Assembly (NCBI GenBank): GCA_964552195.1 | Contig: CAZKFM010000001.1 | Span: 258,796 to 322,795 of the forward strand | Direction: 5' to 3' | From: an uncultured Flavobacteriaceae bacterium | GTDB taxonomy: Bacteria; Bacteroidota; Bacteroidia; Flavobacteriales; Flavobacteriaceae | DNA length: 64,000 nucleotides | Shown here: positions 5,743 to 60,021 of the stretch, piece by piece | Numbering within the stretch: the stretch's first letter is position 1 | Layout of the letters: the number at the start of each line of letters is the position of its first letter | Position numbers and translations under genes: made by a program | The notes under the pieces: model-generated | Told to the model about the DNA's origin: nothing | Seen by the model: the letters and a program-made list of their open reading frames with translations, nothing else | The model's database searches: none

Positions 5743-7110
5743 TTAATCCAGTATCAGGATCTCGTAGGGCTCTAGTACCAGGCTCGCCTCAATGGTGCGT
5801 TCACCCGCGTTGAGGACATCGGTCCATATTCCCTGCAGGCCGACGGGTATATTAAGGGTTTCCTGCCGGTTGCGAATGTTGGCGATGAGCAGGACCCGAT
5901 CTCCATCCTTTTCTTTTTCTAGGCAAACCACATCGGCATCGCGATACAGTGCGTTCTCACCTGTACGTGCTACCTCCGGAGCATTGTAAAAGGTCAGCAT
6001 ATCCTGATAATCCTGTTTCATGTCTTGATTGGCGTCCCAATCGATCACCGAATTTGAAAAGAAGGGTATGTTAGTTGATGCACCCACTTCTTGGCTCCCA
6101 TAAATGAGGGGAGCCCCTCCGGTAAAGATGGCAATTCCCGATGCCGTGGTTGCTCCGGCCGTACCACCGAAGAAGGAGACCGGAGTGGCATCCCATGCGG
6201 ACTCATCGTGATTGGTAGTGAAGCGGATCCAGTTCTTGCCCTGAGGGATGCCCGTATACTCTCTATCATGTGCGGCATACAATTCTTCCACGGACTGTCC
6301 TGCAAAACTTCGCTTCAGGGCATCGTAAAAATCCCAACCAAAGGCCAGATCGAAACCGGAGCTAAAGTGATCATTTCGGGCTCCTTCGGCAAAAAGTATG
6401 AAATCGCGGCCTTCAATGGATCGGATCTCCGAAGCCACATTGCTCCAGAAATCTGCGGGGACTCCATCGGCATAATCGCAGCGAAAACCGTCCACATTGG
6501 CGGTATACAGCCAGTAGAGCATGGCATCCAGCATGGCTTCGCGCATGTCCTGATTACCGTAATTGAGATCCGCCACGTCCAGCCAGTTGGTGCCGGGGGG
6601 ATGAACAATATTTCCATTGGAGTCGGTGGTATACCAGCCCTCGTTCTCTATCCAGTCTGTGTCCCAGGCGGTGTGATTCGCCACCCAGTCCATGATCACC
6701 GCCATGCCTCGGGCATGGGCCTCGTCGGTTAGCCTTCTGAGGTCTGAAAGCGTGCCGAATTCCGGGTTTACGGCCTTAAAATCCCTCACACAGTAGGGCG
6801 AATTCACCGTCTTTTCTAACCCTATGGGATGTATCGGCATTAACCATATAACGTTTACACCCAGTGCTCTGATCTCATCCAGCCTGTCAATTACGCCCTG
6901 AAGGTCCCCCCCTGGGCTGAACGCCCTGAGGTTCACTTCGTACATGACTACATCCTCGGGGTCTGGGACTCCGTTAAAGGGGGTGCCGCATTGGGCATAG
7001 GTAGTCTGCTCCGTTTTGACTTCTCCCGTGCTGTCAGTGGTGTCCTGACAAGATAGAATAAGGAGCAGCAGCAAGCCGGACAGGGCATGGATGTATCCTT
7101 TGTGAATCAT
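5743..7110 (-). CDS. alpha-amylase family glycoside hydrolase (GH13) lipoprotein
   Basis: GH13 conserved regions: VNVIWLMPIHP, GMAVIMDWVANHTAWD, DGFRCDYADGVP, FTTNHDESAW. Lipoprotein signal LLLLLILSCQ. Confidence 0.8.
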   Translation of the reverse strand: MIHKGYIHALSGLLLLLILSCQDTTDSTGEVKTEQTTYAQCGTPFNGVPDPEDVVMYEVNLRAFSPGGDLQGVIDRLDEIRALGVNVIWLMPIHPIGLEKTVNSPYCVRDFKAVNPEFGTLSDLRRLTDEAHARGMAVIMDWVANHTAWDTDWIENEGWYTTDSNGNIVHPPGTNWLDVADLNYGNQDMREAMLDAMLYWLYTANVDGFRCDYADGVPADFWSNVASEIRSIEGRDFILFAEGARNDHFSSGFDLAFGWDFYDALKRSFAGQSVEELYAAHDREYTGIPQGKNWIRFTTNHDESAWDATPVSFFGGTAGATTASGIAIFTGGAPLIYGSQEVGASTNIPFFSNSVIDWDANQDMKQDYQDMLTFYNAPEVARTGENALYRDADVVCLEKEKDGDRVLLIANIRNRQETLNIPVGLQGIWTDVLNAGERTIEASLVLEPYEILILD

Positions 7111-53102: not shown

Positions 53103-53363
53103 ATGGAAGTATCGGTAGAGATTTCGCTATATCCCCTTAAGGAGGACTATGAGCCCCCTATTCAGGACTTTATCAAAGCCCTGCGGGAGTCGGGTCTGCG
53201 AATGATGGAGACCCCTCTCAGCACGCAGGTGTTCGGTCCTTATGATGAGGTGATGCGGGTGGTTACGCGGGAGATGCGGGAGACTCTAGGCCATCTGCCG
53301 GATGGAGTATTTCAGCTTAAAGTGGTGAGCGGTAACCGATCGGACTATGAGCCCGATTTTTGA
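53103..53363 (+). CDS. MTH1187/YkoF-family (DUF77) thiamine-binding-like protein
   Basis: 86 aa. The VEISLYPL...ESGL...TPLSTQVFG pattern matches the YkoF ferredoxin-like fold family. 3 bp after the PPTase stop. Confidence 0.65.
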   Translation: MEVSVEISLYPLKEDYEPPIQDFIKALRESGLRMMETPLSTQVFGPYDEVMRVVTREMRETLGHLPDGVFQLKVVSGNRSDYEPDF

Positions 53364-53979
53364 TTTCTTCCTGGATGCCTATGAAGGCCGCTCCGCCGAC
53401 CTGGTTGTCCTGGAAGCCCTGGCCTTCGTATTCGGTATCTGGAGCGTCTGGCTGGCGCGGTCGGAACACATCTGGGTGTATCCGACGGGTCTGATTTCCA
53501 CGGTGATCGTCACCTACCTTTTCTGGGTCGACCGGTTTATCGGCGATATGATGATCAATGCCTACTACAGCATCATGAGCATCTACGGCTGGTGGAACTG
53601 GCTTCGCGCCCGGGACGGGGTCCGGGTCTCCACCATCGGCATCAGCAGCAACAAGGAGCGATTTTGGGGAACCGGCCTTTTTGTACTGACCATGGTATTT
53701 ACCTATATGGTGTACCAGGGATTCGGCGTGCAACTCGACTGGACCAATTACGTGGATATCTTTACCTCGGGTATCTTTTTCACGGCCATGTGGTTCATGG
53801 CGCGCAAGCGGATCGCGAACTGGACCCTGTGGATAGTAGGTGACCTAATTACCGTACCTTTATACGCCTACCGCGGCTTTGGGATGCTTTCCCTGCAGTA
53901 CGCCATCTTTACCGTACTGGCCATATACGGTTTAATGGAATGGAGAAAACGCTACTACAGCAACCTTCAGACATCGTAA
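53347..53979 (+). CDS. pnuC: PnuC-family nicotinamide riboside (or thiamine, PnuT-type) transporter
   Basis: GIWSVWLARSEHIWVYPTGLIS and WWNW motifs of the PnuC family. About 7 TM helices. Overlaps the upstream ykoF-like gene by 17 nt. Confidence 0.85.
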   Translation: MSPIFDFFLDAYEGRSADLVVLEALAFVFGIWSVWLARSEHIWVYPTGLISTVIVTYLFWVDRFIGDMMINAYYSIMSIYGWWNWLRARDGVRVSTIGISSNKERFWGTGLFVLTMVFTYMVYQGFGVQLDWTNYVDIFTSGIFFTAMWFMARKRIANWTLWIVGDLITVPLYAYRGFGMLSLQYAIFTVLAIYGLMEWRKRYYSNLQTS

Positions 53980-54521
53980 AAGTGGTCCTATTCGGACCGG
54001 AATCCACGGGCAAGACCACGCTGGCCCGAGAGCTCAGCGAACACTACGACGAACCCTGGGTGCCGGAATACGCCCGGGATTTCCTACAGCGAAAATGGGA
54101 TGCCGAAAAGGAAATCTGCAGCAAGGAGGATCTCATGGATATCGCACAGGGACAGATCCGGCACGAGAATGAACTCGCCGCGCGAAGCCGGCGACTGCTG
54201 GTATGCGATACCGATCTGTTGGAGACCCTGGTGTATTCCGAACTCTACTTCGATGGATACGCCCATCCGGTCTTGCGGGAAGCGGCCCTTAGCAACACCT
54301 ACGACCTCTATTTCCTTACCGATATAGACGTGCCCTGGGAGGAGGACGACCTCCGCGACCGGCCGGATGATAGGGAGGAATTCTTCCTGGCTTTCCGGGG
54401 GGCATTGGAGCAAAGCGGTAGGAAATTTGTTACTTTGAGCGGGGGACGCGAACAGCGCCTTCAAACTGCCATTTCAACAATTGATCATCTACTCAATACG
54501 ACCTATGGAACTCACGGATAA
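53940..54521 (+). CDS. NadR C-terminal-domain-like kinase (ribosylnicotinamide kinase-type P-loop ATPase)
   Basis: Walker A GPESTGKTT and the PEYARDF motif resemble the NadR RNK domain. Overlaps the pnuC 3' end. The real start may be internal. Confidence 0.6.
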   Translation: MEKTLLQQPSDIVKVVLFGPESTGKTTLARELSEHYDEPWVPEYARDFLQRKWDAEKEICSKEDLMDIAQGQIRHENELAARSRRLLVCDTDLLETLVYSELYFDGYAHPVLREAALSNTYDLYFLTDIDVPWEEDDLRDRPDDREEFFLAFRGALEQSGRKFVTLSGGREQRLQTAISTIDHLLNTTYGTHG

Positions 54522-56040
54522 CGACAAGAAACTCCTCAGTGAAAAGGGCATAACCGAACAGCAACTGGCCCGGCAGGTGGAAATGTTTGAAAAAGGGGTG
54601 CCCTTTGTAAACCTGGCCGAAGCCGCGACAGTGGGCAACGGCATTTTCCAATTCGATGAGCAGCAACAATCTGCTTTAAGGGAGCAATTCGACAAACTCA
54701 GGGAGGGCAAGTCCCTGCTTAAGTTTGTTCCCGCTTCCGGGGCCGCTTCACGTATGTTCAAGGCGCTGTTCTCCTTTCTCGATGCCTATGAGCCCGAAGA
54801 AGAGGAGCTGGATGCCTATTTCGAAAGAACCGGAGATAAGGCGCTGAAGCAGTTTAAGGAGGGCTTGGAGAAGTTTGCGTTTTACAGCGATGTACAGGAG
54901 CGTATCGCAGGCAGCTACCAGACGGAAGGGGAACACCTGCATCGATTCGTAGCCGAAATCCTCGGGGAGACGGGCCTGAATTACGGTTTCTATCCCAAGG
55001 GGATGCTGGCCTTTCACCGATACGGAGACCGCAATGTGACCCCCTTCGAAGAACACCTCAAGGAGGCTGCCCGCTATGCTGAGGCCAATGGTACGGCCCG
55101 GGTACATTTCACCATTTCGCCCCAGCACCAGGAGCTCTTCACGGCCGAGCAGGAACGCATACAAGATCGCCTGAGCGAGGAAACCGGCAAGACCTTCGAG
55201 ATTTCCTTTTCGTATCAGAAGCCCTCTACGGATACGGTAGCGGTGAACATGGACAACACCTTCTTCCGGCAGGAGGACGGCAGCCTGCTCTTCCGGCCCG
55301 GTGGACACGGCGCCCTGATCGAGAATCTGAACGAGGTCAATGCCGATATGGTTTTTATAAAGAATATCGACAATGTGGTTACGGAAAGGGACTTTCCCGA
55401 CACGGTGGACAACAAGAAGATGTTAGGAGGACTGCTGCTCAGCATACAGGAGCGTGCCTTCGAACACGCCCGCTGGCTGGATGAGGGTTCCGGTGGAGAG
55501 GATCACCTGGAGGAGTGCCGGTTGTTTATGGAAACGGAGCTTAATGTCCGCATACCCGGCGAATACAGCACTCTGGACGAGGCGGGCAAGCGAGGACTTC
55601 TGAAAATCCTTATCGATCGCCCCATCCGGGTCTGTGGCATGGTAAGAAACGAGGGAGAACCCGGCGGGGGCCCCTTCTTTATTCACGGAACGGACGGCTC
55701 GGTTTCCCTGCAGATCATCGAATCTGCCCAGATCGATACCGACAATCCTGCCCAGAATCAGATCCTGCAGGGGGCTACCCATTTCAACCCGGTGGACCTG
55801 GTCTGCGGGATGAAGAATTACAAGGGTGAGCCCTACCACCTGATGGATTATGTGGATATGGGCCAGGCCTTTATCGCCTACAAGACCAAGGACGGCAAGG
55901 ATCTCAAGGCACTGGAACTCCCCGGCCTATGGAACGGGGCCATGGCGAAGTGGAACACCATCTTCGTTGAGGTTCCCCTGAGCACCTTTAACCCCGTTAA
56001 GACCGTCAACGATTTATTGAAGCCGGCGCATCAGGCGTAG
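54505..56040 (+). CDS. DUF4301 family protein (UDPGP-like nucleotidyltransferase motifs)
   Basis: 511 aa. The start overlaps the kinase stop. Gly-rich VPASGAASRM and PGGHGAL motifs resemble the UDPGP (PF01704) nucleotide-binding and catalytic loops. Confidence 0.55.
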   Translation: MELTDNDKKLLSEKGITEQQLARQVEMFEKGVPFVNLAEAATVGNGIFQFDEQQQSALREQFDKLREGKSLLKFVPASGAASRMFKALFSFLDAYEPEEEELDAYFERTGDKALKQFKEGLEKFAFYSDVQERIAGSYQTEGEHLHRFVAEILGETGLNYGFYPKGMLAFHRYGDRNVTPFEEHLKEAARYAEANGTARVHFTISPQHQELFTAEQERIQDRLSEETGKTFEISFSYQKPSTDTVAVNMDNTFFRQEDGSLLFRPGGHGALIENLNEVNADMVFIKNIDNVVTERDFPDTVDNKKMLGGLLLSIQERAFEHARWLDEGSGGEDHLEECRLFMETELNVRIPGEYSTLDEAGKRGLLKILIDRPIRVCGMVRNEGEPGGGPFFIHGTDGSVSLQIIESAQIDTDNPAQNQILQGATHFNPVDLVCGMKNYKGEPYHLMDYVDMGQAFIAYKTKDGKDLKALELPGLWNGAMAKWNTIFVEVPLSTFNPVKTVNDLLKPAHQA

Positions 56041-56060
56041 GCGAAAAATCGTGATTTGAG

Positions 56061-56101
56061 CTCCCGGCGGGCCTAAGCAAGGGTTTTCCGGGAGGTTTTT
56101 T
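56061..56101 (+). terminator. rho-independent terminator after the DUF4301 gene
   Basis: ctcccgg...ccgggag stem followed by GTTTTTTC. Confidence 0.65.
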
Positions 56102-56164
56102 CATGGAGTGACGTTTGCCTTGCCGGGCCATTTGAAGTCTTTTTAAGTGCGTATATTTGCAGCT

Positions 56165-56245
56165 TGAACACAGGGGTGCTTGCTCACGGCAGGCTGAGAT
56201 TATACCCGAAGAACCTGGGCGGATAATGCCGCCAAGGGAGTTGTT
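56165..56245 (+). ncRNA. TPP riboswitch (THI element)
   Basis: GGGGUGC...GCUGAGAUUAUACCCGAAGAACCUGGGCGGAUAAUGCCGCCAAGGGAG matches the thiM-type aptamer blocks CUGAGA / UACCC / ACCUG / GGAUAAUGCC / AGGGA. Lies 66 nt upstream of the TonB-dependent receptor ATG. Confidence 0.85.
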
Positions 56246-56310
56246 ACCGACGTCTTCTTCAGGTCAGGATTCCTTCCTTCCACGCTTATCGCCCCGCTAA
56301 TCTTAGGAAA

Positions 56311-58497
56311 ATGAAGTATGCACTCGCTGCCGGCTTGCTGCTAGGTACCCTGGCATTTACTCTGGCTCAGGAGCAGAAAGTGACTAAAGACACCTTAGAG
56401 CCCTTACGCGTAAACCTGAACGAAGTGATCCTGTTCGCGACCCGGGCCAGTCAGCGTACCCCGGTTACGTTTACCACCATACGGGCCAAAGAGATTCAGC
56501 CCCTCAATCTGGGCCAGGACCTTCCCCAGCTATTGAATTACTACCCATCCGTAGTAGCCACCAGTTTCGACGGTACCGGTGTGGGGTACACGGATATACG
56601 GGTAAGGGGATCGGATAATTCCCGCATCAATGTTACCATTAACGGCATTCCCTACAACGATGCGGACAGCCAGACGACCTTTTTTGTCAACCTGCAGGAT
56701 TTTGCCTCTTCCATAGGCTCTATACAGTTGCAAAGGGGAGTGGGTACTTCGACCAATGGTGCGGGGGCCTTCGGAGCAAGCCTGAATATAGAAACCCAGC
56801 CGCTGTCCGTGGTGCCCTTCGCCGAACTGGCGACCAGTGCGGGCAGTTTCGGTACCCAGAAATACACCCTTCAGGCAGGAACCGGCGTACTAAACGATCA
56901 CTGGAATGTCAATGCCCGGCTTTCCCGTATTCGTTCCAACGGCTTTGTGGATCGCGCCTTCGCTGATCTTCGATCGTATTTCGTGCAGGGGACCTACCGG
57001 GATAAGAATACCCTGGTCAAGGGACTGGTATTCGGCGGATCGGAACGCACCGGCCTGTCGTTTATCGGCCAGGACCGGGCAGGGCTCGATCGGGACCGGC
57101 GGTTTAACCCCGACGGACTGTTCGTCAATGCCGACGGGGAGACCCGCTTCTATGAGGACCAGACCGACAACTACTGGCAGGACCATTATCAGCTGCATTT
57201 TACTCAGGGCTTCAATACGCGCTGGAACGCCACCCTTTCCCTGCATTACACCAACAGCCGCGGCTACTTCGAACAAATGAACGACGATGCCTCCCTGGAC
57301 TTCTACCGGCTGGGGACTGCCGACCTGCCCGGGCAGACTGCGGCTACCGCCGACCTTGCCAGCCGTCTTCATCTGAATTCGGAGTTCTACGGCTTGGTCC
57401 ATCAGATCAACTACCGGAGCGATGAGGTGACGGCCACATTCGGGGGGAGTTACCAGCGCTACGATGGGAATCAGTTCGGAGAGGTTATCTCCCTCGACCA
57501 GGGTATTCTGCCTGAGCGACCCTTTACGTTTTACCGCAATACCAGCCGCAAGCGCGACTGGAATAATTTCCTGAAGGCCACCTGGGACAGGGACGACTGG
57601 TCCCTGTTCGGGGACTTGCAATTTCGCCGGATTACCTACCGGGCGGAAGGATCTCTCTTCGATCCGGCTTCCGTACTCGAGGTGGACGAGGTATATAATT
57701 TCTTCAATCCCAAGGCCGGGCTGAGCTATAATCCCGATCCGGACACCAGTTTTTATCTGTCCGTGGCCCGGGCTCAGCGGGAACCCGCCCGTGTGGACTT
57801 CGAAAACGGAAATCCCGAGCCCGAAAAGCTCTGGGATTGGGAACTGGGGACCCGACTTCGCAGGGAAAAGATTCAGTTGCAGGCTAACCTGTTTTTCATG
57901 GACTATTCCAATCAGCTGGTCCTTACCGGTGAGCGCGATCAGGGTGGGTTTCCTTTGCGCACCAACGTAGGAGAAAGCTACCGCTTTGGCCTGGAGGCCG
58001 ACCTGACCTGGAAGCCAACGCAGGATCTGGTCATTCAACCCAACCTCACCTGGAGCCGCAATCGCAACCGCGATTTCGTGGTCTCCCGAAACGGGGAGCT
58101 TGTCAATCTCGGAAATACGGCCATTTCCTTTTCGCCCGAGTGGATAGCCGGAAATCGGATAACCTGGACCCCTTTTCGGTACTGGTCGTTTACCTTCCTG
58201 AGCAAATTCGTCGGGGAGCAGTTCATGTCCAATACGGAAGAAGCCAACGCCCGCCTGGAAAGCTATTTCGTGAACGACCTTAACGTGCAATGGAGGGTGC
58301 CTCAGCGGATGTTTACCGCCCTGGAGATCACCCTGCAGCTAAACAATCTGTTCGACGTGCAATACGAGAACAACGGTTACTTCTTCACCTTTGATGTACC
58401 GAACGAAGGGGGCAATGGGGTCACCACACTGGATGGTAATGCCTTTTACCCACAGGCAGGAATAAATTTCCTGGCCGGACTGCGCATTCGGATGTAA
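56311..58497 (+). CDS. TonB-dependent receptor, TPP-riboswitch regulated (candidate thiamine or thiamine-precursor outer-membrane transporter)
   Basis: Signal peptide, plug motifs, 728 aa barrel. Directly downstream of the THI-box. Confidence 0.8.
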   Translation: MKYALAAGLLLGTLAFTLAQEQKVTKDTLEPLRVNLNEVILFATRASQRTPVTFTTIRAKEIQPLNLGQDLPQLLNYYPSVVATSFDGTGVGYTDIRVRGSDNSRINVTINGIPYNDADSQTTFFVNLQDFASSIGSIQLQRGVGTSTNGAGAFGASLNIETQPLSVVPFAELATSAGSFGTQKYTLQAGTGVLNDHWNVNARLSRIRSNGFVDRAFADLRSYFVQGTYRDKNTLVKGLVFGGSERTGLSFIGQDRAGLDRDRRFNPDGLFVNADGETRFYEDQTDNYWQDHYQLHFTQGFNTRWNATLSLHYTNSRGYFEQMNDDASLDFYRLGTADLPGQTAATADLASRLHLNSEFYGLVHQINYRSDEVTATFGGSYQRYDGNQFGEVISLDQGILPERPFTFYRNTSRKRDWNNFLKATWDRDDWSLFGDLQFRRITYRAEGSLFDPASVLEVDEVYNFFNPKAGLSYNPDPDTSFYLSVARAQREPARVDFENGNPEPEKLWDWELGTRLRREKIQLQANLFFMDYSNQLVLTGERDQGGFPLRTNVGESYRFGLEADLTWKPTQDLVIQPNLTWSRNRNRDFVVSRNGELVNLGNTAISFSPEWIAGNRITWTPFRYWSFTFLSKFVGEQFMSNTEEANARLESYFVNDLNVQWRVPQRMFTALEITLQLNNLFDVQYENNGYFFTFDVPNEGGNGVTTLDGNAFYPQAGINFLAGLRIRM

Positions 58498-58550
58498 GGT
58501 TGAGGTTTTACCGGGCTTCGTAATTTTAACCGGAACGCAAAGTCGAATTC

Positions 58551-59567
58551 ATGATGGAGATCTATCCGGCACTGAAGGCCGAAAAGCCCCTGTTTGACAA
58601 AACGCCCATTCGTTGGGGCATGATTGGTATAGGAGCGGTAACCGAACTCAAAAGCGCACCGGCCTATTATAAGAATCCGGGCTTCGAATTGGCCATGGTC
58701 ATGGGAAGAGATGCCCGTAAGGCGGCAGACTACGCAGCCCGGCACGGTATCTCCCGTTGGACCACCGATGCTGCGGAATTGGTCAACGACCCTGAGATCG
58801 ATGCCGTGTATATCGCTACCCCTCCGGATTCCCACCTGCATTACGCCCGTATGGTCGCCGAAGCCGGAAAGCCCTGCTGCGTCGAAAAACCCATGGCCCC
58901 CACCTACCGGGAAAGCCAGGAAATGTATGGCCTGTTTAAAGAACGCAACCTCCCCCTTTTCGTCTCCTACTACCGACGCTCCCTGCCGCGCTTCAATAAA
59001 ATAAGAGAAACTCTGGAATCGGGAGGCATAGGAACGCCGAGGCACATCCACTGGGTCAAGACCAAGCCTCCGAGCGAAGTGGATCTGAATCGCACATATA
59101 CCTGGAGGACCGATCCCGAGATAGCGCCGGGGGGTTACTTCGACGACCTGGCCTGCCACGGTCTGGACTTGTTTGCTTACCTGCTGGGGAATTTTGTCCA
59201 GGTAAGCGGACAGGTATGCAACCAACAGGGCTATTATCAGGCCCCCGATGCCATAACCGCCAGTTGGGTGCACCAGGGGGGAGCTACGGGCAGCGGGTTC
59301 TGGAATTTCGCTTCCGACGATTACCGTGATGAAGTAAAGATCTACGGTGAGCGGGGCACCCTGTCATTTTCGGTTCTCTATGAGGCCGCCGTCTGTCTGG
59401 AGTCCGGAGGAAAAACAGAAGAGTGGGAAATCGAAAACCCACATCACATACAGATGCCCCATGCCGAGAACCTGAGACGTCACCTCATGGGGGAAGCTGC
59501 ACACCCCTCGACCGCATACAGTGCGCTGCACTGCGGCTGGGTCATGGAAGAGATACTTCAGGACTGA
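58551..59567 (+). CDS. Gfo/Idh/MocA family oxidoreductase
   Basis: N-terminal Rossmann IRWGMIGIGAV and a GFO_IDH_MocA C-domain. 53 bp downstream of the TonB-dependent receptor. Confidence 0.8.
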   Translation: MMEIYPALKAEKPLFDKTPIRWGMIGIGAVTELKSAPAYYKNPGFELAMVMGRDARKAADYAARHGISRWTTDAAELVNDPEIDAVYIATPPDSHLHYARMVAEAGKPCCVEKPMAPTYRESQEMYGLFKERNLPLFVSYYRRSLPRFNKIRETLESGGIGTPRHIHWVKTKPPSEVDLNRTYTWRTDPEIAPGGYFDDLACHGLDLFAYLLGNFVQVSGQVCNQQGYYQAPDAITASWVHQGGATGSGFWNFASDDYRDEVKIYGERGTLSFSVLYEAAVCLESGGKTEEWEIENPHHIQMPHAENLRRHLMGEAAHPSTAYSALHCGWVMEEILQD

Positions 59568-59577
59568 GAAAGCGTAT

Positions 59578-60021
59578 TCAGTTCGTGACTATGAGGGTAT
59601 TGCCACTGGGAATCACATTGTAACGCAGCAGATCGTAGAATACCGAGCCGGTCTGGGGTCGGTTTGACATCTGCCCCGTGAACAGATTATATCGGTAGCC
59701 CTCACAGTTACACTCGACTTCTATGCCATTGATTCTCATGGTCGAACAATCGTTGGGCACATGGTTGGGGCAACTCGCTTCGTAAGCTTGGTAGAGATCG
59801 ATCGAGGTCTGCATGACAAATACCCCGCGCGTACCCACTCCATTGAGCCCTACATAGACGGGATTACCTATGGTGTTGAGCCCGTTATACAGGGGGAGGT
59901 TCAGGTCCAGGTCGATGCGAAAACTGATTTCCTGAAGGAAAGGGTTGCGGTTGGTTCGCTCGGTGGAACAGGCCGAAAGGCCTACTGCGAATAGGAGTAT
60001 CAGGATCAGGAACTTTCTCAT
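59578..60021 (-). CDS. hypothetical Cys-rich lipoprotein
   Basis: Lipobox LFAVGLSAC. Five further Cys residues (CPNHVPNDC, ECNCEG). Confidence 0.4.
   Translation of the reverse strand: MRKFLILILLFAVGLSACSTERTNRNPFLQEISFRIDLDLNLPLYNGLNTIGNPVYVGLNGVGTRGVFVMQTSIDLYQAYEASCPNHVPNDCSTMRINGIEVECNCEGYRYNLFTGQMSNRPQTGSVFYDLLRYNVIPSGNTLIVTN

Follow-up and report, generated by a model that had tools for sequence, protein, structure and literature searches.

We analysed a THI-box element, the aptamer of thiamine pyrophosphate (TPP) riboswitches, in a 64,000-nt stretch of DNA from an uncultured Flavobacteriaceae bacterium (contig CAZKFM010000001.1; the whole stretch is called the window below, and coordinates are on its + strand unless stated otherwise). 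The aptamer lies at 56167-56245 and is followed on the same strand by a gene for a TonB-dependent outer-membrane receptor (TonB-dependent transporter, TBDT; 56311-58497) and, after a spacer of 53 nt, by the accessory gene of the locus, encoding a 338-aa NAD(P)-dependent oxidoreductase of the Gfo/Idh/MocA family (OXR; 58551-59567). An initial annotation of this DNA had described a canonical TPP riboswitch in front of an apparently co-transcribed gene pair. We found instead an aptamer with base pairs in place of the pyrophosphate-sensor loop, and in related loci OXR is an occasional, variable cargo behind the transporter. The transcription unit is isolated from the upstream operon by an intrinsic terminator at 56061-56101, whose GC-rich 7-bp stem CUCCCGG/CCGGGAG is followed by U6 (-26.2 kcal/mol for the fold of 56051-56110); the annotation had placed a terminator here, and it is real. 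Bacteroidetes promoters have a -33/-7 consensus, and a promoter of this type occupies 56131-56159, with the -33 element TTTG at 56131-56134, a 17-nt spacer and the -7 box TATATTTG at 56152-56159. The predicted transcription start falls a few nucleotides ahead of aptamer helix P1, and a TAnnTTTG box recurs 13-15 nt 5' of the aptamer GGGG in 74 of 81 orthologous aptamers. At the other end, a convergent gene from the open reading frame (ORF) list, encoding a predicted lipoprotein of 147 aa (59578-60021, - strand; N-terminal part MRKFLILILLFAVGLSAC), begins 11 nt past the OXR stop codon, so that the unit can hold two genes at most.

All THI-box blocks listed in the initial annotation were found at 56172-56240. 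The RF00059 search that it had proposed as a check gave a significant match to 56162-56256, covering the full length of the model (positions 1-105) with 48.5 bits and a local E-value of 1.1e-8, or 1.9e-6 when the whole window, both strands and all 4227 Rfam families are counted, but this score lies below the gathering cutoff of 54.3 bits. RF00059 was the sole family with E<=0.5 in the 64-kb window, and a default Rfam scan of the window at gathering cutoffs came back empty because the score is sub-threshold, the aptamer itself being present. Unconstrained minimum free energy (MFE) folding of 56166-56250 gave P2 (GGG 56173-56175 with CCC 56205-56207), P3 (56178-56194) and the P4/P5 arm, in which P4 pairs CCU 56214-56216 with AGG 56235-56237 and loop L5 (AUAAUG) spans 56223-56228; the joining segment J3-2, CUGAGA, is at 56194-56199. 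Among the helices expected to fold, only P1 (AACA 56167-56170 with UGUU 56242-56245, 4 bp) was absent from the MFE structure. The order of the elements, namely P1, a P2-P3 arm with GGGGUGC, CUGAGA and ACCC, a P4-P5 arm with a UAAU-containing L5, and AGGGA, is that of RF00059 and of the Escherichia coli thiM aptamer, and the window aptamer resembles thiM also in lacking P3a.

The relatives with which we compared this locus comprised 38 genome loci with OXR orthologues, 80 metagenome loci with TBDT orthologues (44-51% identity) and five more loci added through exact-protein look-ups; every look-up of homologues of a THI5-like protein encoded in some of them ended at this TBDT locus again. A covariance model trained on 33 aptamer copies with a short P3, R1, gave the window aptamer 80.6 bits and those of 86 orthologous loci 33-99.7 bits. 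(R1 was rejected for general detection of TPP aptamers, because it missed a canonical THI-box that a regular expression had found in locus L059.) In a second R1 search, the variant aptamer stood upstream of the TBDT gene in 78 of 82 loci, the other four being contigs with <250 nt of upstream sequence; it is also present in the window, five genome loci and three complete genomes, for a total of 87 loci in Flavobacteriaceae. Essentially every TBDT orthologue with enough upstream sequence is thus preceded by it. Scored with RF00059, every tested copy fell under the gathering cutoff (33-48.5 bits for all tested): a gathering-level scan of 13 orthologous loci returned no match, and searching relatives by E-value recovered five copies at 33.4-46 bits, with two further copies above E=0.01. 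Across 33 aligned sequences, 91.9% of cells were paired, as compared with 30-58% in slid controls, and the covariation score was 0.240 against 0.138 in shuffles, none of 500 shuffles scoring as high. Seven base pairs have changed on both sides, three of them in P3 and four in the P5-side helix.

The pyrimidine-sensor half of the aptamer (P2/P3, GGGGUGC, the CUGAGA T-loop and ACCC) is invariant in these 33 sequences as well as in the 70 copies parsed for statistics on the pocket. L5, which docks on P3 in the thiM structure, reads GUAAUG in 65 of the 70, AUAAUG in four, the window among them, and GUCAUG in one. The P4/P5 arm differs: in thiM it runs CCUG-AU-CUGG-AUAAUG-CCAG-CGU-AGGGA, a sequence verified against 5425 E. 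coli genomes, whereas in the window it runs CCUG-G-GCGG-AUAAUG-CCGC-C-A-AGGGA. It is therefore 2 nt shorter than in thiM, with one residue each missing in J4/5 and J5/4, and the thiM-like spacing claimed for the element does not extend to this arm. The altered pyrophosphate-sensor region (56217-56234) consists of the equivalent of thiM G60 (56217), directly 3' of it a 5-bp helix GGCGG/CCGCC (56218-56222 with 56229-56233), and a single A (56234); there is no canonical 3x3 loop containing C77 and G78. Infernal alignments show the identical two 1-nt deletions in every copy aligned, at the consensus 'AU' of J4-5 and 'CG' of J5-4, and in all 70 parsed copies the sites of thiM A61-U62/C77-G78 are taken by two covarying Watson-Crick or wobble pairs, the arm being 1 nt shorter per strand. 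The first replacing pair is GC in 54 copies, GU in 8, AU in 7 and CG in 1; the second is GC in 64, AU in 4, CG in 1 and GU in 1. Within the 33-sequence alignment the replacing helix is 100% paired and holds four pairs changed on both sides. ACCU is invariant in the 70 copies, the G60 equivalent is G in 69, and in 60 there is one A just before AGGGA. The copy in which the G60 equivalent is replaced belongs to a 71%-identical relative of the window (L161:3620-3701) and has ACCUA for ACCUG.

In TPP riboswitches, G60, C77 and G78 position the metal-pyrophosphate, C77 and G78 by hydrogen bonds to the pyrophosphate, and G40, G42, A43 and G19 recognise the aminopyrimidine ring (PMC3764141, PMC7824784). 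Judged by the conservation of these positions, the variant has kept the pyrimidine-reading half, and its pyrophosphate-reading loop has been turned into a plain helix plus a G/A mismatch; with the gathering score missed as well, the aptamer is not canonical. The distribution of the copies indicates that the pocket variant is lineage-wide and tied to this TBDT gene, rather than a mutation of a single copy, and its ligand specificity is probably altered relative to TPP sensors. McCown et al. 2017 (RNA 23:995; PMC5473149), citing unpublished work (Roth et al., in preparation), mention P4-P5 core variants 'present in many bacteria' that bind thiamin about as well as thiamin monophosphate (TMP) and TPP, so that discrimination is lost. 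The aptamers studied here share with these a mutated P4-P5 pyrophosphate-binding core in an otherwise intact aptamer, a comparison made by description alone, as the searched literature gives no sequences, consensus or gene associations for them. McCown et al. make no mention of variants restricted to a single TBDT orthogroup of Flavobacteriaceae, and no later paper on P4-P5 core variants was found in the literature searched. We likewise found no description of a pocket variant strictly paired with one TBDT orthogroup, of its systematic sub-threshold score, or of the cargo of the locus.

The aptamers also differ from RF00059 around P1, which is weak in the window, and many relatives have an extra hairpin ahead of its 3' strand, by which that strand is seemingly shifted. 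In many copies (e.g., L106, L095, L109 and L105) this small hairpin, for instance GGCGAUAAUCGCC or UGCGCAAGGCGCA, is placed between AGGGA and the presumed 3' strand of P1, and the copies with it also have an invariant 5' AUCUCAAA, the complement of UGAGAU in the ligand-binding loop J3-2. Both features are missing from the window, L001 and L161.

The leader that follows the aptamer (56246-56310) would form the expression platform. As the initial annotation had stated, no U-tract terminator follows the aptamer: no hairpin with a U-tract occurs in the window between the aptamer and the ATG at 56311, and because of this, repression would act at translation initiation or on mRNA stability. Transcriptional attenuation is not proposed for the same reason, although the distance rule of Costliow et al. 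(>40 nt) predicts it; from aptamer to AUG the window has ~65 nt and relatives have a median of 99 nt, as compared with <5 nt in the translational transport riboswitches of Bacteroides thetaiotaomicron. A C-rich tract, CGCCCCG (56290-56296), occurs 19 nt 5' of the AUG and is complementary to GGGGUG of the P2 5' strand. It is a shifted version of an element shared by the leaders of relatives, AAUAAUnnCCCCUUUUAUUCGU, which is complementary to the invariant AAAGGGG at the P2 5' side. Among orthologous leaders, a CCCC tract lies 26-33 nt 5' of the AUG in 68 of 84 (5.5 expected from shuffles), the GGGG:CCCC pairing probability from partition functions averages 0.84 and exceeds 0.5 in 52 of 59, and enforcing the aptamer lowers the accessibility of the start region in 52 of 68. 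The P2 helix may thus compete with the C-rich tract for GGGG and so affect translation initiation or mRNA stability. Three results weigh against this scheme: the drop in accessibility among relatives is small (0.32 to 0.28); the window leader behaves in the opposite way, the enforced aptamer raising start-site accessibility from 0.44 to 0.61; and the GGGG:CCCC pairing probability is 0 in the window construct, the pairing appearing only in the MFE structure of a longer construct. Given the opposite sign, the accessibility model is not used as evidence for the mechanism in the window. Competition between P2 and the C-tract is probably at work, the folding models supporting it well in relatives but not for the window's own leader. 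In relatives (e.g., L015:2808-2902 and L162:3626-3744) a short hairpin, CGUAA...UUACG, comes after AAUAAUnnCCCCUUUUAUUCGU and borders directly on the AUG, and GAAUAA/UUAUUC can form a stem that shows CCCC in its loop; the window has this only in diverged form.

The ATG at 56311 opens, as annotated, a TonB-dependent receptor of 728 aa, with an N-terminus (MKYALAAGLLLGTLAFTLAQ) that reads as a signal peptide, a Plug domain (PF07715, 2.2e-11) and a 22-strand-type beta-barrel (TonB_dep_Rec_b-barrel, PF00593, 6.2e-32); it meets no specific NCBIfam cutoff. The initial annotation was also right that outer-membrane transporters under THI-box control are known in Bacteroidetes (PMC5613172, bioRxiv 10.1101/867226, PMC10881298). 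OMthi (BT2390) of B. thetaiotaomicron is genetically implicated in thiamine uptake, 85 of 97 transport-associated TPP riboswitches of gut Bacteroidetes precede OMthi, and omr1 was reported 'with a nearby TDP riboswitch' in metagenome-assembled genomes of Flavobacteriales (PMC10881298). The likeness of our locus to these, as drawn here, is one of architecture: a TonB-dependent receptor directly 3' of a THI-box in a member of Bacteroidota. Gut Bacteroidetes have OMthi-pnuT-tnr3 operons (tnr3 encoding thiamine pyrophosphokinase), whereas neither pnuT nor tnr3 occurs downstream in the window locus; the TBDT gene here is mostly monocistronic, and where there is cargo it differs (OXR, THI5/ThiY-like or 2-oxoglutarate (2OG) oxygenase genes). 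By analogy with omr1 and OMthi, the TBDT is predicted to import thiamine or a thiamine vitamer, and the locus is a genuine riboswitch-transporter pair of this known type.

Our best explanation of the whole, to which we assign a probability of about 0.7, is that a variant THI-box riboswitch controls a TBDT importer of vitamin B1 or of a B1-related pyrimidine, with OXR as cargo of a variable slot. Transcription would start at the Bacteroidetes-type promoter, its -7 box immediately 5' of the aptamer, and the bound ligand would repress the transporter once thiamine is sufficient. The variant probably senses the thiamine/TMP/TPP pool, or a non-phosphorylated pyrimidine vitamer, instead of TPP specifically. 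What speaks against this explanation at the RNA itself is P1, which in the window has 4 bp only; MFE misses it, and Infernal marks non-standard pairs within P1 in all copies. A weak P1 and a score under the gathering cutoff could be the marks of a decaying, non-functional remnant, but 87 loci with TBDTs just 44-51% identical have conserved the variant, with compensatory changes and a fixed spacing to the promoter box, and we hold the remnant reading to be refuted already by conservation and covariation, with a negligible chance of being true. A more serious competitor, though we would bet against it, is an ordinary TPP sensor in which the short P4/P5 junction is a neutral, lineage-specific trait and Mg-pyrophosphate coordination persists, for instance by way of G60 and the G/A mismatch. 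With G60 kept in 69 of 70 copies, the variant could indeed still bind TPP through a re-shaped pocket; the single A of J5/4 is kept in 60 of 70, the remaining conserved blocks are all intact, and TPP is a physiologically sensible signal for repressing B1 uptake. On the other side, C77 and G78, which alone are reported to form hydrogen bonds with the pyrophosphate, are left without a conserved equivalent, and the variants of McCown et al. are P4-P5 core variants that lose discrimination between thiamin, TMP and TPP. A bolder reading than our own, which we consider unlikely, would make these aptamers an uncharacterised THI-box class, invisible to standard Rfam annotation, that senses a non-phosphorylated compound (thiamine, hydroxymethylpyrimidine (HMP), aminomethylpyrimidine (AmMP) or formylaminopyrimidine (FAMP)) and serves a TBDT vitamer-salvage locus of marine Flavobacteriaceae, the cargo (a cytoplasmic THI5/ThiY-like protein, a Pnu transporter, the 2OG-Fe(II) oxygenase and OXR) providing an unknown route with a redox step from imported B1 degradation products to usable precursor.

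The region behind the transporter varies between loci. Seen from the TBDT gene, the conserved order is DUF4301 - (ArfB-like) - THI-box - TBDT - slot - convergent 147-aa gene - GreA - HIT. The 147-aa lipoprotein gene, conserved beside the TBDT gene or the slot in 61 loci, forms the 3' border both of the transcription unit and of the slot; its product matches no Pfam family and only faintly a sulredoxin-like NCBIfam model (E=0.008). Among 91 TBDT loci, 23 ended before the slot could be read and 68 were complete. None of the tested cargo genes was present in 49 of the 68; 13 had OXR alone, two a THI5/ThiY-like gene and then OXR, one a THI5-like gene, two unknowns and then OXR, two a THI5-like gene alone, and one a 2OG-Fe(II) oxygenase, a second Pnu transporter, a THI5-like gene and a GAF/PAS gene. 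OXR thus stands behind the TBDT gene in 16 complete slots, from several genera, and is an occasional, variable cargo; thiamine-pyrimidine genes and two kinds of redox enzyme recur in the slot. In other slots the genes are clearly unrelated (GH92, ABC-F ATPase, secreted proteins of the type IX secretion system (T9SS), DUF6978).

Some slots are tightly packed. In F. maritima (CP030104) the THI5-like gene begins 4 nt past the TBDT stop and OXR 21 nt past the THI5-like stop, and in L106, where the order is the same, the THI5/ThiY-like gene and OXR are separated by ~20 nt; the tight junctions ahead of OXR are in L106, L163 and L164. The THI5-like protein gave matches to ThiY, which binds FAMP (3ix1), and to 4nmy, and a signal peptide would not fit in it. 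The slot of Costertonia aggregata (L164:10001-13442, CP058595) holds the THI5-like gene, a gene for a 214-aa predicted lipoprotein and one for a 158-aa SRPBCC-like protein whose stop overlaps the OXR start (ATGA), and a 360-nt AT-rich gap after the THI5-like gene may hold another promoter. In Maribacter sp. R77961 (L165:6415-12087, CP138991), the same variant THI-box is followed by the TBDT gene, a 2OG-Fe(II) oxygenase gene overlapping the TBDT stop, a gene for a second Pnu-family transporter, a THI5/ThiY-like gene and a GAF/PAS gene, that is, by a different redox enzyme and a candidate inner-membrane partner.

OXR comprises an N-terminal Rossmann domain and the C-terminal alpha/beta domain of its family (GFO_IDH_MocA PF01408, 7e-24, 85.3 bits; C3 domain PF22725, 2.6e-20, 73.1 bits; PF02894, 34.2 bits; all above cutoffs). 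It shares this layout with IolG, 1,5-anhydro-D-fructose reductase and Gfo6 xylose dehydrogenase, but scores far under their equivalog cutoffs: none of the NCBIfam equivalogs (IolG, Gfo6, levoglucosan dehydrogenase and others) was reached, the best being IolG (TIGR04380) with 103.1 bits against a cutoff of 355. The closest solved relatives are 6a3f and 2glx, the best match in the Protein Data Bank having an E-value of 1e-22 only. We know of no characterised Gfo/Idh/MocA member that acts on thiamine-related compounds. The orthogroup extends, at 43-60% identity, across Bacteroidota, Balneolales, Proteobacteria and Verrucomicrobiota, and orthologues 43-56% identical in Flavobacterium, Balneola, Gamma- and Alphaproteobacteria, Verrucomicrobiota and others have unrelated neighbours, judging by their translations (KatG, GST-like, HtpX, ABC-F and others). 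In a rough tree most slot OXRs fall into one flavobacterial clade and the window group has its own long branch, which reduces the 16 co-occurrences to one or two events. Other elements accompany some orthologues: Flavo-1 RNA (RF01705) directly follows the OXR orthologue in L010 (6965-7069) and occurs in L013 (10282-10347), a cobalamin riboswitch lies upstream of it in L012 (2675-2867, minus strand), and runs of heptamer-like repeats (TCATCGT/ACATCGT/TCATTGT) are placed just 5' of it in two Flavobacterium-type loci, L004 (~1520-1600) and L010 (~5890-5970).

The junction with the TBDT gene bears on whether OXR belongs to the regulon. The spacer of the window (58498-58550) has no terminator, only a weak hairpin, and contains a promoter-like arrangement of TTG (58500-58502), 18 nt and TAATTTTA (58521-58528). 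Read-through from the riboswitch promoter probably reaches OXR here, a claim that we favour somewhat over its opposite, and OXR may also have a promoter of its own. The initial annotation had proposed a two-gene operon under a canonical, TPP-specific riboswitch, with OXR as a genuine member of the THI regulon performing a redox step on a thiamine-related substrate. The shared strand, the 53-nt gap without a terminator, the recurrence of OXR in 16 of 68 complete slots from several genera, its position 20-21 nt after the THI5/ThiY-like gene in F. maritima and L106, and the overlap of another redox enzyme, the Maribacter 2OG-Fe(II) oxygenase, with the TBDT stop all favour this proposal, which to this extent has partial support. 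As a whole we consider it unlikely, on account of the non-canonical aptamer and of several observations that also weigh against the place of OXR in our own explanation. All of the tested cargo genes are absent from 49 of 68 complete slots, and in 38 loci the convergent gene directly follows the TBDT gene. Between TBDT and OXR the Cellulophaga locus L025 has a clear terminator (AAAGGGAAUUCCA...UGGAAUUCCCUUUUUUU) and a TACTTTTG box, strong hairpins follow the TBDT gene in L087, L162, L105, L119, L127 and L161, and a -7-like box of the type TTCGTAnnTTT[AG] is conserved 5' of the OXR start in most OXR loci. The whole block from DUF4301 to HIT is syntenic, so that adjacency can be inherited, and the orthologues in five other lineages have neither related neighbours nor a THI-box: at OXR loci outside the clade, neither regular expressions nor R1 found one (the lone weak extra R1 match, 22.3 bits in L009, is 4.7 kb from OXR), and in 26 such loci RF00059 gave nothing at gathering and no thiamine neighbours were present.

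The same observations lend weight to the view that OXR is an unrelated housekeeping gene, transcribed from its own promoter, that entered a permissive slot in one or two insertions and was kept there by synteny, the TBDT alone being riboswitch-controlled. TTG-N18-TAATTTTA in the window spacer and the -7-like box in most loci would supply such a promoter, a terminator or hairpins follow the TBDT gene in at least seven relatives, unrelated genes (GH92, ABC-F ATPase, T9SS proteins, DUF6978) share the slot, slot OXRs fall into one or two clades, and orthologues are widespread without thiamine context. We regard this view as a strong contender that falls somewhat short of an even chance: the THI5-like/OXR junctions of F. 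maritima and L106 are too tight for a promoter, the window has no terminator, and intercistronic hairpins are compatible with co-transcription. The -7-like box near the 3' ends of THI5 genes is weakened as proof of an OXR promoter, as TTAGTTTT there encodes the conserved residues DLVF and the motif may reflect no more than that. In L105 (6165-6215) and L119 (6180-6225), the -7-like box and the OXR start codon lie inside a perfect 13-14-bp hairpin with UUUUCAUUUUU after it; the TBDT transcript could terminate there, and the 5' arm would be missing from a transcript begun at the internal box. A response of OXR expression to thiamine is, from these arrangements, nearly an even question with the balance slightly on the negative side, and action of OXR on a thiamine-related substrate is doubtful. 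For a redox step in a THI regulon, then, the recurrence of OXR behind the TBDT gene and its tight THI5-like junctions argue in favour, and the orthologues elsewhere without thiamine context argue against; a redox enzyme in the regulon is possible, as is a role of OXR in the salvage of an oxidised or reduced B1 vitamer.

The operon that ends at the upstream terminator (53103-56040, +) encodes a Thiamine_BP/YkoF-like protein of 86 aa, PnuC, an AAA_28 protein resembling NadR-type ribosylnicotinamide kinases, and DUF4301, and is syntenic with the THI-box and TBDT gene in most loci. In eight loci (L081, L097, L098, L103, L118, L132, L133 and L148) AAA_28 and DUF4301 form one fused ORF of 704-775 aa, which suggests that DUF4301 may work with the kinase, perhaps in nicotinamide riboside/NAD salvage. 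The PnuC-family gene was considered as the inner-membrane partner for thiamine (PnuT) and rejected as a default, as its product passes the NCBIfam PnuC equivalog cutoff; its position ahead of the NadR-type kinase-like gene also counts against a PnuT reading. Scans of the window with R1 and RF00059 found no aptamer ahead of this operon.

Should the variant simply sense TPP and OXR be a bystander, the locus would be an ordinary riboswitch-transporter pair of the omr1/OMthi type. Since copies of the variant score below gathering, pipelines that use the Rfam cutoff probably miss a B1-responsive outer-membrane transporter in many marine Flavobacteriaceae, and surveys of B1 auxotrophy and uptake based on RF00059 searches (as in PMC10881298) would be biased by this. 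In print we found such variants mentioned only once, in a paragraph that refers to unpublished work, and the 87 loci constitute a natural, well-populated group of TPP aptamers in which the pyrophosphate pocket is gone and the pyrimidine pocket invariant, offering a ready test of a shift in specificity. How B1 vitamers are salvaged is an open topic in marine microbiology, and the genes of the slot (THI5/ThiY-like, Pnu, 2OG oxygenase and Gfo/Idh/MocA) are candidates for steps still missing from this salvage.

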